This document shows, piece by piece, positions 13,078 to 15,596 of a stretch of 64,000 bases of DNA. Source of the stretch: Escherichia coli (GTDB lineage Bacteria; Pseudomonadota; Gammaproteobacteria; Enterobacterales; Enterobacteriaceae); assembly GCF_041886205.1 (NCBI RefSeq), contig NZ_CP169029.1; one strand, 5' to 3'. The number at the start of each line of letters is the position of its first letter. The first letter of the stretch is position 1. Below the pieces are notes generated by a model that saw nothing but the letters and a program-made list of their open reading frames with translations, made no database searches and was not told where the DNA came from. The translations under genes were made by a program, and so were the position numbers.

Positions 13078-13968
13078 ATGATCAAGAAGACAACGGAAAT
13101 TGATGCCATCTTGTTAAATCTCAATAAGGCTATCGATGCCCACTACCAGTGGCTGGTGAGTATGTTTCACAGCGTGGTCGCGAGAGATGCCAGTAAGCCA
13201 GAAATAACGGATAACCATTCTTATGGACTGTGCCAGTTTGGTCGGTGGATTGATCATCTGGGGCCACTCGATAACGATGAATTACCTTACGTTCGGCTAA
13301 TGGATTCTGCCCATCAACATATGCATAACTGTGGTCGGGAATTAATGCTGGCTATTGTTGAAAATCACTGGCAGGACGCGCATTTCGACGCCTTTCAGGA
13401 GGGGTTGCTTTCTTTTACTGCGGCATTAACCGATTACAAAATTTATTTGCTGACGATCCGTAGCAATATGGATGTTTTGACGGGATTGCCGGGGCGTCGG
13501 GTTCTTGATGAATCCTTTGATCATCAGTTACGCAACGCTGAGCCTCTGAATCTTTATTTAATGTTGTTGGATATTGACCGATTTAAATTGGTTAATGATA
13601 CCTACGGGCATTTAATCGGCGATGTAGTATTACGCACCCTGGCAACTTACTTAGCCAGTTGGACGCGTGATTACGAAACGGTTTATCGCTACGGGGGCGA
13701 AGAATTTATCATTATTGTCAAAGCGGCTAATGATGAAGAAGCATGTCGTGCAGGTGTCAGAATTTGCCAGTTAGTCGATAACCATGCCATCACGCATTCT
13801 GAAGGGCATATCAACATTACCGTGACAGCAGGTGTCAGTCGCGCATTTCCTGAAGAGCCTCTGGATGTGGTCATTGGAAGAGCAGACCGGGCAATGTATG
13901 AGGGTAAGCAAACCGGAAGAAATCGCTGCATGTTTATTGATGAACAAAATGTGATTAACCGAGTTTAA
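13078..13968 (+). CDS. dgcZ: Zinc-sensory diguanylate cyclase (CZB + GGDEF, 296 aa)
   Basis: C-terminal GGDEF domain with RYGGEEF active site; start at MIKKTTEID. Confidence 0.9.
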   Translation: MIKKTTEIDAILLNLNKAIDAHYQWLVSMFHSVVARDASKPEITDNHSYGLCQFGRWIDHLGPLDNDELPYVRLMDSAHQHMHNCGRELMLAIVENHWQDAHFDAFQEGLLSFTAALTDYKIYLLTIRSNMDVLTGLPGRRVLDESFDHQLRNAEPLNLYLMLLDIDRFKLVNDTYGHLIGDVVLRTLATYLASWTRDYETVYRYGGEEFIIIVKAANDEEACRAGVRICQLVDNHAITHSEGHINITVTAGVSRAFPEEPLDVVIGRADRAMYEGKQTGRNRCMFIDEQNVINRV

Positions 13969-14085
13969 GCTCCGTTTAACATTCATTGAGAAAACTGATG
14001 CTACTGTGTCAACGATCCGTTATCAGTGCAGGAAAATGCCTGTTAGCGTAAAAGCAAAACACAAATCTATCCATGCAAGCATTCA

Positions 14086-14111
14086 CCGCCGGTTTACTGG
14101 CGGTTTTTTTT
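14086..14111 (+). terminator. Rho-independent terminator downstream of dgcZ (CCGCCGG-ttta-CTGGCGG + T8)
   Basis: Stem-loop followed by eight T read directly. Confidence 0.55.
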
Positions 14112-14118
14112 CGCCGTC

Positions 14119-14159
14119 ATAAAAATCAGGCCCCTTGTACACAACTGTAACAAGGGGCC
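14119..14159 (-). terminator. Rho-independent terminator for mgtS (GGCCCCTTGT...ACAAGGGGCC, U-run on minus strand)
   Basis: 10-bp perfect stem then TGATTTTTAT on the minus strand. Confidence 0.55.
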
Positions 14160-14186
14160 GGTTAGGTGAGGGATTATCTCCGTTCA

Positions 14187-14282
14187 TTAGTCATCCCATT
14201 TGTGGCTGAAATACGCGGCCAGAAAACCAGAAAATAAAATTATTCCCAGTACGGCCATAAAAACATTCATATTACCCAGCAT
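14187..14282 (-). CDS. mgtS: Small membrane protein MgtS/YneM (31 aa: MLGNMNVFMAVLGIILFSGFLAAYFSHKWDD)
   Basis: Hand-translated; below the ORF-track length cutoff; GGAGG Shine-Dalgarno 6 nt upstream of the ATG; single predicted transmembrane helix; matches the known E. coli small protein. Confidence 0.8.
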   Translation of the reverse strand: MLGNMNVFMAVLGIILFSGFLAAYFSHKWDD

Positions 14283-14408
14283 TATTTGCCTCCGTTTATG
14301 GTGTGGTGTGTTTCCTCGCTTACCTTAATTTTCATCTCAATGAGAAAGATATTAGCAGAGGTAACCTAAACGAAGGCTGAATTAAATTTTTATTGTGTTC
14401 GACTTAAA

Positions 14409-15596
14409 TCAACAAAGCGCGGGCTGCCCCCACGGTTTTGCACGAATCCCTTTTAACATCAGCACCCACGCAGCAATGATCACCAACGCTAAGATGATAA
14501 ACAGCGAGGAAGGCGGCAGGCTGGTTAGCACTACGCCACTCACTAATGGGTTAATTGCAGCACCAAGCCAGCCTAAAGACTGGGCGGAAAAATAGCTGGC
14601 TTTCATTCCTGGCGGCGCAATATGGTCAATCAACATATACTCGCCCGGCGCATAAATGATTTCACCGACAGTAAATACCGCAGCTGACATACCCCACAAT
14701 AGCAGGCTGTTGCCGGAAAAAATAAAACCAACCAGACCGATGACGAAACAGAGGGTGCCTGCTGTCATCAGCGCGCGGATGTTAACCGGGTTAAGGCGGC
14801 GGCCCACGGAATATTGCAACGTAACTACCATGGCAGCATTAACCGGAAGAACAACCGCGACCACCTTTTCGGCAAAATCCCCATCAGCAATCACCATCAC
14901 ATATTGTGAAATGCATGAAGCAAATGCGCCGCTAACAAAGGAAGCCAGAAAACCAGAGCAGGTAAACCACAACAGTGCTTTATCTTGTAATAAAACTTTC
15001 GGCGACCAGACACTGCCTGTTTCCGTGGCGATGATTTTCTCGCTGCGCTTTACCCAAATTTGAATGAAAAGCATGGGAAACGCGGAACAGATAGCTGCCA
15101 GCCAAAAGGGCAGATTGATGCTCTGCATCACCAACAGCGTGCCGAGCGGCGGACCGATGGTCCAGCCAATGTTTAGCATGGTGTAGTTGATTGAGAAGAT
15201 TTTCGTTTTGCTGGTGGACGAAAGATTGTCGGCAAACCAGGCTTTCAACACGGTAGCAAAAACGGAATAGGCGCAGTTAATAAGGGCAAAAAAGAGCACC
15301 ACCAGCGTCACGTTATTCACTAAAGGAATGGCAATAAAACCGCTGGCGAAGGCGGTAATTGCCAGTAACATATAGCGTTTCTTGTCGAACTTATCCGCCA
15401 GGATACCAAAACCGAGGCTAAAAACGACGCCAATAGTGAGCGCAATTGTCATCGCATAACCGATTAGATCGACACTCAGGCTGTACTGGCGACTCAAGTA
15501 AATGGTCATAAATGGCAGCGTAGCGCCGCGTCCGATGGTTAATAACAACGACGAGGCAAGAAGGGCGCTGGTAGAGCGTCGTAGGGATAAGTTCAT
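14409..15596 (-). CDS. ydeE: MFS transporter (395 aa)
   Basis: 12-TM MFS-type ORF; conserved position. Confidence 0.9.
   Translation of the reverse strand: MNLSLRRSTSALLASSLLLTIGRGATLPFMTIYLSRQYSLSVDLIGYAMTIALTIGVVFSLGFGILADKFDKKRYMLLAITAFASGFIAIPLVNNVTLVVLFFALINCAYSVFATVLKAWFADNLSSTSKTKIFSINYTMLNIGWTIGPPLGTLLVMQSINLPFWLAAICSAFPMLFIQIWVKRSEKIIATETGSVWSPKVLLQDKALLWFTCSGFLASFVSGAFASCISQYVMVIADGDFAEKVVAVVLPVNAAMVVTLQYSVGRRLNPVNIRALMTAGTLCFVIGLVGFIFSGNSLLLWGMSAAVFTVGEIIYAPGEYMLIDHIAPPGMKASYFSAQSLGWLGAAINPLVSGVVLTSLPPSSLFIILALVIIAAWVLMLKGIRAKPWGQPALC

Follow-up and report, generated by a model that had tools for sequence, protein, structure and literature searches.

The window that we analysed is a 64,000-nucleotide stretch of Escherichia coli DNA, and the interval of interest within it, positions 13969-14408, separates the 3’ end of dgcZ on the plus strand (stop codon TAA at 13966-13968) from that of ydeE on the minus strand (stop codon at 14411-14409). 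RefSeq annotates dgcZ, mgtT, mgtS and ydeE at this locus, and a 551-nt query around it found a match in 5416 of 5426 complete E. coli genomes. The window is not K-12 itself; it runs in the opposite orientation to K-12 MG1655, to which it is 98.8% identical over 6 kb; between 13900 and 14450 the two sequences differ by five SNPs, one of them at nucleotide 4 of MgrR, and by no indels, so that coordinates can be mapped exactly from one to the other.

We are close to certain that the dgcZ-ydeE gap is the known low-magnesium locus of PhoQ/PhoP, composed of two convergent units, mgrR on the plus strand and mgtS-mgtT on the minus strand, and nothing that we found speaks against this identification. 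The genes mgrR, mgtS and mgtT are all previously annotated in E. coli K-12, and naming the locus yields nothing new, because its biology is textbook PhoQ/PhoP; the sole new detail is that the mgtT reading frame passes through the mgtS terminator. The locus also makes a clean positive control, in that a first-pass annotation made by reading the sequence alone detected an actual small-protein gene and came within 4 nt of the position of an actual sRNA.

The MgrR small RNA and its promoter

Searching both strands with the Rfam covariance models, we obtained a single match, to RF01407 (STnc560, the Salmonella name of MgrR), over the full length of the model on the plus strand, at 281.9 bits against a gathering threshold of 55 (E = 1.3e-65). 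This model is 214 nt long and covers 13980-14193, far wider than MgrR itself; it extends past the sRNA on both sides, into the -10 region and into the mgtS terminator and the beginning of mgtT. The K-12 annotation delimits the sRNA: mgrR (b4698; NC_000913.3 1622817-1622914, minus strand), between dgcZ and mgtS, maps to 14014-14111 on the plus strand of the window, a length of 98 nt. The first-pass annotation had noted that MgrR is reported from the dgcZ-ydeE gap but had left its position and strand uncertain; the Rfam match and the K-12 mapping put it on the plus strand, and the plus-strand transcript of roughly 100 nt that had been proposed at 14010-14111 is MgrR, with a discrepancy of 4 nt.

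In a published structure-probing study, MgrR is 98 nt long and folds into stable stem-loops at both ends around an unstructured, A-rich centre; the study also describes protection of G41, the pairing region U55-A68 and a U8 tail. Its numbering fits a +1 at 14014, which places the G at 14054, the U at 14068, the A at 14081 and the T8 at 14104-14111. The corresponding elements in the window are a 5’ hairpin (14018-14048), an A-rich single-stranded stretch (about 14049-14065), the target-pairing region U55-A68 (14068-14081), a terminator stem-loop (14085-14104; ACCGCCGG-TTTA-CTGGCGGT, then T8) and the U8 tail (14104-14111). The minimum free energy fold of the RNA (-25.9 kcal/mol, z = -2.9) contains the same two hairpins as the probing study. 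Published Term-seq data place the MgrR 3’ end at 14104, the first U of the tail, against an annotated end of 14111. MgrR is known from the literature to be Hfq-dependent and to repress eptB, ygdQ and pitA. Compared with the known MgrR (b4698/STnc560), the RNA in the window is equal in position, strand, length, 5’ hairpin, A-rich stretch, nucleotides 55-68, terminator and U8, and the single SNP at nucleotide 4 leaves no substantive difference.

Further MgrR loci were collected by scanning one genome per species with the 19-nt pairing region, which returned 84 stretches, all from Enterobacteriaceae apart from a few chance hits; 77 loci were gathered with the exact 19-nt MgrR seed, the conservation of which is therefore by construction. 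Enterobacter and related genera also have MgrR, but with no mgtS next to it. Covariation figures were taken from a subset of 20 Escherichia, Citrobacter and Salmonella sequences in place of the 77-sequence MAFFT alignment, on which RNAalifold gave the terminator alone because the 5’ hairpin was misaligned between clades. In this subset, 93.7% of the cells in the MgrR helices were paired, as against 28-48% with slid partners. The terminator was 100% paired, and 5 of the 11 pairs of the 5’ hairpin changed on both sides, with six such pairs in the RNA as a whole.

Upstream of mgrR, three hexamers follow one another at an 11-nt period, AGTTTA at 13962, CGTTTA at 13973 and CATTGA at 13984. The latter two form the PhoP box of mgrR at 13973-13989 on the plus strand (CGTTTAacattCATTGA, in which acatt separates the half-sites), to which PhoP would be expected to bind. 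The box ends exactly 12 nt 5’ of the hexamer of an extended -10 element, TGcTACTGT (13999-14007; TG at 13999-14000, TACTGT at 14002-14007), and the annotated +1 at 14014 lies 7 nt past this hexamer. When the upstream DNA was aligned on the conserved MgrR 5’ end GATCC and then tested for the pattern, the layout [CT]GTTTA-N5-[CT][AG]TT[GTA]A, exactly 12 nt and TAnnnT was shared by 76 of the 77 distinct sequences upstream of MgrR in Enterobacteriaceae. The 12-nt spacer ended in TGn in 72 of these 76, and positions T1, A2 and T6 of the -10 element were invariant. The comparison yields an exact promoter grammar for mgrR that is strongly conserved, namely a PhoP box, then a gap of exactly 12 nt, then TGnTAnnnT. 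The first hexamer, AGTTTA (13962-13967, plus strand), lies one 11-nt period 5’ of the conserved box, extends over the final codon of dgcZ and its stop, and is a possible third PhoP half-site, weakly conserved across genera.

The first-pass annotation had seen in this region only a weak GTTTA-like half-site, a description that the conserved box contradicts. A consensus scan for PhoP boxes with up to two mismatches fared no better: it returned the register 13962-13978 and a spurious site within the MgrR terminator (14091-14107) and missed 13973-13989, which was resolved by the cross-species alignment only. The scan chose the neighbouring register because both PhoP boxes of the locus are imperfect (CGTTTA/CATTGA for mgrR; AATTCA/CGTTTA for mgtS, described below), and a sigma-70 scan found neither promoter because both are without a -35 element.

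The terminator that ends MgrR bears on what the plus-strand RNA is. The first-pass annotation had placed a terminator 118-143 nt after the dgcZ stop codon and assigned it to dgcZ; the position stands (with its T8, the element at 14085-14111 lies 117-143 nt after the stop), but the terminator is MgrR’s own. It probably ends dgcZ transcripts too, because there is no other terminator between the dgcZ stop codon at 13968 and 14085, and dgcZ transcripts probably traverse mgrR. One could accordingly take the plus-strand RNA for a mere dgcZ 3’UTR that ends at the dgcZ terminator, with no independent sRNA, a reading that is hardly credible given that the spacing between the PhoP-box/extended -10 promoter and the conserved 5’ end is constant in nearly every sequence compared, and given a published mgrR-lacZ fusion that extends to +10 only and is PhoP-dependent.

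The mgtS gene and its upstream region

On the minus strand, mgtS (yneM, b4599) occupies 14282-14187 and encodes a small inner-membrane protein of 31 codons, MLGNMNVFMAVLGIILFSGFLAAYFSHKWDD, preceded by a GGAGG Shine-Dalgarno sequence (14293-14289) 6 nt before the ATG. Both the reading frame with its ribosome binding site and the identity with MgtS/YneM, as given in the first-pass annotation, were borne out: the protein matches NCBIfam NF033842 over residues 1-31 of 31 (80.6 bits, cutoff 35), mgtS is RefSeq-annotated here and in essentially all E. coli genomes, and the protein is identical to that of K-12. PF22865 matches MgtS homologues. The reading frame is kept wherever an mgtS-like sequence exists, and in 38 distinct coding sequences from other species the pN/pS ratio was 0.21 in the mgtS frame and 1.03 and 1.73 in the two other frames. 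Variability by codon position was 114/52/297. The MgtS family is restricted to Enterobacteriaceae, with 22 matches in 1.84 billion cluster representatives; the 17 of these that were examined are mostly fragments or fusions, with three divergent full-length forms only. According to citations in other papers, MgtS raises intracellular magnesium through MgtA and PitA.

The first-pass annotation did not include two features of the minus strand, namely mgtT, which overlaps the mgtS stop codon and holds the mgtS terminator, and CDS58.

We assign to mgtS a PhoP box at 14383-14367 on the minus strand (AATTCAgccttCGTTTA; AATTCA and CGTTTA, separated by gcctt), comparable to that of mgrR and likewise a site at which PhoP would bind. 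It lies 12 nt before the hexamer of an extended -10 element, TGcTAATAT (14357-14349), and the start site is predicted at about 14342-14341; a published yneM fusion is described merely as reaching +91. Reporter fusions of both mgrR and yneM are PhoP-dependent in published work. A regular expression for the layout ([AG/T][AG]TT[CA]A-N5-[TC/G]GTTTA, 12 nt, TAnnnT) returned 24 of 41 distinct mgtS upstream sequences. The box in the window was parsed by eye, the expression having taken a different first match, and this parse is identical to that of E. albertii.

Between this promoter and mgtS lies CDS58 (14335-14282, minus strand), a 17-codon reading frame, MKIKVSEETHHTINGGK, with an identical sequence in the supplement of a transposon-reporter study (PIRT-seq), in which it was detected only faintly. 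Its TAA overlaps the mgtS ATG, forming a second TAATG at the locus, and its own ATG is missing in E. albertii and E. whittamii. Inside CDS58 there is a conserved element of the mgtS 5’UTR, UUAAGGUAAGcGAGG (14328-14314), which 26 of 44 distinct regions upstream of mgtS retain. The element is complementary to the 3’ end of 16S rRNA (CCUCCUUA) together with the first bases of the precursor tail (CCUUAA), the 16S tail having been checked against genomes. The calculated duplex energy is -19.8 kcal/mol, a value reached by 2 of 1000 shuffles; for the mature end by itself it is -9.5 kcal/mol. This complementarity agrees with a 2025 TRIC-seq preprint, in which the 16S 3’ extension contacts the mgtS 5’UTR. 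A pairing of the conserved mgtS 3’ segment with the 5’UTR element was also considered and was rejected: it comprises at most 5-6 bp and is absent in Citrobacter.

The mgtS terminator and the mgtT reading frame

Downstream of mgtS, and overlapping it, lies mgtT (b4775; 14187-14083, minus strand), a gene of 34 codons, MNGDNPSPNRPLVTVVYKGPDFYDGEKKPPVNRR, whose ATG shares its A with the mgtS stop codon (TAATG). MgtT was found by initiation-site ribosome profiling and as a tagged protein (Weaver et al. 2019). The literature describes the mgtS-mgtT operon as PhoQ-dependent and induced in low magnesium, and MgtT as not membrane-bound; no phenotype has been reported on deletion or overexpression of mgtT. 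In the PIRT-seq transposon-reporter mapping, mgtT was seen through an insertion 17 nt into the reading frame, that is, in codon 6 only. A search of NCBIfam with MgtT gave no matching model.

The gene extends across two terminators. The intrinsic terminator of mgtS, which the first-pass annotation had rightly credited to this gene, lies at 14161-14119 on the minus strand and corresponds to mgtT codons 9-23. It consists of a hairpin at 14161-14127 with the core GGCCCCTTGT/ACAAGGGGCC, followed by A-TTTTT-AT (14126-14119; U-tract 14125-14121). A terminator scan missed this hairpin, the stem of which contains a mismatch. In the supplementary Term-seq table of Adams et al. 2021, a 3’ end appears at MG1655 1622804(+), equivalent to 14124 in the window, and is classed solely as antisense to mgrR. 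This position is the second U of the tract; in mgtT it is the first base of codon 22, 39 nt short of the stop codon. The main mapped 3’ end thus falls within the coding region, and full-length MgtT can therefore come from read-through RNA only. Further on, mgtT codons 26-34 are the complement of the MgrR terminator, and the last 29 nt of the gene (14083-14111) are antisense to it. Read-through mgtS-mgtT transcripts are thus antisense to MgrR. An RNase III-dependent site is reported at 1622816 (14112 in the window), and there is earlier evidence for an RNase III-dependent antisense RNA here.

The terminator hairpin and its T-tract were kept, with compensatory changes in the stem (for example GGCTTCTTAC/GTAAGAAGCC and GGCCTCTTGC/GCAAGAGGCC), in at least 29 of 36 distinct sequences, a lower bound because the hairpin finder mis-called about 7 of the 36 loci, which have loops of more than 10 nt. 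The 34-codon form of mgtT, by comparison, was found only in E. coli, including a divergent lineage, and in E. albertii. In related genera MgtT is not conserved as a protein of similar length: the reading frame ranges from 7 to 83 codons. Some versions stop 1 nt short of the hairpin, with 7-8 codons, others stop within it, with 14-15 codons, and the remainder run to 24-83 codons and carry unrelated tails. Even within E. coli, the C-terminus tracks the length of the MgrR U-tract, a U9 giving E26K and a U7 giving a frameshift and a protein of 30 residues.

What recurs across genera in mgtT is the first 8 codons and the hairpin-encoded residues only. The former make up a mini-ORF, MN(G/T/D)D(N/S)PxP, at 14187-14164 on the minus strand. 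Its ATG overlaps the mgtS stop codon in all 32 distinct non-Kluyvera sequences in which mgtS adjoins MgrR, from Escherichia, Citrobacter, Salmonella, Kosakonia, Phytobacter, Pluralibacter, Yokenella and other genera. The module of mini-ORF and hairpin also follows mgtS in a Pluralibacter genome in which mgtS lies 4 kb from MgrR, and the mini-ORF module was present after mgtS in two more loci that were found through the protein. In Kluyvera the overlapping ATG and the hairpin are both missing, and the mgtS stop codon abuts the MgrR terminator; at the locus of the most divergent MgtS (65% identity), a GTG occupies the equivalent position and an unrelated peptide follows. Over mgtT codons 2-8 the pN/pS ratio was 0.48 in the mgtT frame and 1.08 and 1.01 in the two others, a difference that is suggestive only, because it comes from 7 codons in related sequences.

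Combined with published work on the two genes, these observations allow a model of the locus to be drawn. In low magnesium, PhoQ/PhoP becomes active, and PhoP, on both boxes, would recruit polymerase to the two convergent promoters. On the plus strand, the promoter with the box in place of a -35 element drives the 98-nt Hfq-dependent MgrR, which ends at its own terminator and together with Hfq represses its targets by pairing through nucleotides 55-68. On the minus strand, the second PhoP-box promoter drives the mgtS-mgtT mRNA, with MgtS made from a message that mostly ends at about 14124. As the TAATG overlap and the published initiation signal suggest, ribosomes that terminate on mgtS could restart on the overlapping ATG. 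On the terminated E. coli RNA, such ribosomes would meet the hairpin and then a 3’ end without a stop codon, whereas on read-through RNA they would make MgtT.

Possible roles of the conserved mini-ORF

We consider it doubtful that the full 34 residues of MgtT form an independently functional protein whose overlap with two terminators is incidental. The initiation profiling signal, the tagged protein, the PhoQ-dependent induction in low magnesium and the retention of a 105-nt reading frame in E. coli, its divergent lineage and E. albertii all argue for it, but outside Escherichia the length varies from 7 to 83 codons and the C-termini are unrelated. Moreover, codons 9-34 coincide with the mgtS terminator hairpin, its U-tract and the antisense of MgrR’s terminator, RNA features whose constraints explain the conservation of these codons. 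The position of the main RNA 3’ end in codon 22, the lack of a reported phenotype or an NCBIfam match, and PIRT-seq support that is limited to the codon 6 insertion also weigh against such a protein. A rather unlikely reading is that the stretch of about 27 nt between the mgtS stop codon and the hairpin is conserved at the RNA level, as a binding site for protein or RNA in the 3’UTR, and that the overlapping ATG is a by-product. In its favour, nucleotide identity in the stretch is high at all three codon positions, and the conserved portion of the Rfam model includes it; an in-frame excess of synonymous changes, on the other hand, is not expected under a purely RNA-level constraint, and inspection of the mgtS 5’UTR revealed no pairing partner for it.

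The start codon that overlaps the mgtS stop at every non-Kluyvera locus bar the one divergent lineage with GTG points in another direction, namely that a translationally coupled mini-ORF, MNxDNPxP, places ribosomes on the 5’ arm of the mgtS terminator and thereby tunes termination, 3’-end stability or read-through into antisense-mgrR RNA, with non-stop translation in E. coli. A ribosome on the short reading frame would overlap the terminator arm, as attenuation demands. The in-frame constraint on codons 2-8, the stop codon 1 nt before the hairpin in several genera (inside or beyond it elsewhere), the joint loss of mini-ORF and hairpin in Kluyvera and the presence of the module where mgtS is distant from MgrR are all consistent with this proposal, as are the RNA 3’ end inside mgtT and the antisense RNA reported to depend on RNase III. 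Against it, the coding signal is weak, with positions 3 and 7 varying freely, a ribosome that reinitiates after mgtS would usually trail far behind the polymerase, and the mgtT deletion has no reported phenotype. Folding the region with RNAfold species by species gave no recurring alternative pairing. We regard the coupled mini-ORF as improbable on present evidence, and the probability that these three readings leave goes to a mini-ORF with no function.

The conserved mini-ORF is nevertheless the sole part of the locus that could lead to something new, and its comparison across genera suggests a testable link between the convergent mgrR and mgtS. If ribosomes on the mini-ORF do act on the terminator, they could govern how frequently transcription or translation continues into the antisense of mgrR. 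MgtS synthesis would then be coupled to MgrR abundance by way of RNase III, and the terminated mgtS transcripts of E. coli would be non-stop messages. Apart from any such role, the fact that MgtT spans a pair of terminators, with conservation limited to codons 1-8, bears on the weight to be given to small ORFs that are identified by initiation profiling.

Compared with the MgtT of Weaver et al. 2019, the reading frame and its overlap with mgtS are identical; what is added here is the mapped mgtS terminator inside the reading frame, the limitation of cross-genus conservation to the first 8 codons, and a C-terminus that follows the MgrR U-tract. The two promoters have the architecture of PhoP-activated promoters such as those of mgtA, phoP and mgrB, that is, a (T/G)GTTTA-like direct repeat with an 11-nt period, 12 nt before the -10 element and with no -35 element, but unlike consensus PhoP promoters they both carry imperfect boxes.

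Control of magnesium genes by leader peptides is exemplified by mgtL for mgtA and by mgtP for mgtCBR. On the reading in which it acts on the terminator, the mini-ORF would resemble mgtL and mgtP as a very short, proline-containing reading frame placed directly before a hairpin at a PhoP-regulated magnesium gene; unlike either of them, it lies at the 3’ end, after a coding gene.

Linkage of mgrR and mgtS among relatives

Several genera (Enterobacter, Lelliottia, Leclercia and Silvania) carry MgrR together with its PhoP promoter but lack mgtS within the fetched DNA (homologous loci L005, L009, L011, L012, L015, L024, L027, L030, L034, L066 and L069, among others), indicating that linkage between mgrR and mgtS is not obligate. 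In Enterobacteriaceae bacterium RIT691 (L014), MgrR is present in two copies on the same strand, separated by 1.6 kb (L014:1402-1511 and L014:2996-3105), where the copy adjoining mgtS lacks a PhoP-box promoter while the other copy has one.

A metagenome-assembled genome labelled Caldithrix sp. (L008) holds a contig that matches E. coli exactly across mgrR-mgtT-mgtS, and is almost certainly a case of contamination of the metagenome bin. A record labelled DH5alpha (L001; NZ_CP026085.1) matches the window with 100% identity across 551 nt, a stretch in which MG1655 differs from the window by 5 SNPs, an unexpected pattern for a K-12 derivative.

Terminators and the MgrR 3' end

In seven Kluyvera loci (L010, L031, L048, L055, L074, L075 and L078), the mgtS stop codon and the complement of the MgrR terminator are 0-3 nt apart, and there is neither a separate mgtS hairpin nor an ATG overlapping the mgtS stop. 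The MgrR terminator may end transcripts in both directions in these loci, although on the mgtS side its tail, TATAAA, makes a poor U-tract.

The Term-seq table puts the dominant MgrR 3' end at window position 14104 (+; MG1655 1622824), on the U that opens the U8 tract; the annotated end, 14111 (+), lies 7 nt further on. This gap could reflect trimming, homopolymer mapping or a genuinely short tail. On the opposite strand, a terminator-like hairpin, CGTGGGGGCAGCCCGCG followed by CTTTGTTGAT (14418-14434, -), overlaps the last codons and stop of ydeE directly upstream of the mgtS PhoP box.

A candidate PhoP promoter at a fimbrial operon

The only zero-mismatch match to the PhoP-box consensus within the 64-kb window is TGTTTAgtcgcTGTTTA, which lies within 60318-60351 (+), in an unannotated gap 5' of a fimA-type fimbrial operon. 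The second element, TGCATAAT, starts 9 nt 3' of TGTTTAgtcgcTGTTTA and includes a -10-like hexamer, CATAAT, starting 11 nt past the box. This site may serve as a fimbrial promoter under PhoP regulation.

The mgtS 5'UTR and CDS58

The 17-codon PIRT-seq ORF CDS58 (MKIKVSEETHHTINGGK; 14282-14335, -) begins with an ATG only about 7 nt from the predicted start site of the mgtS transcript; other Escherichia species do not conserve this ATG. The stop of CDS58 overlaps the mgtS ATG in a TAATG junction, such that CDS58, mgtS and mgtT are joined by two such junctions in succession.

The mgtS 5'UTR also contains an element, UUAAGGUAAGcGAGG (14314-14328, -), complementary to the 16S rRNA 3' end and the start of the precursor tail, with a duplex energy of -19.8 kcal/mol. 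Among 44 distinct mgtS upstream regions the element is kept in 26, with none in Salmonella or Kluyvera. This complementarity is in line with a 2025 TRIC-seq preprint, to which it lends support.
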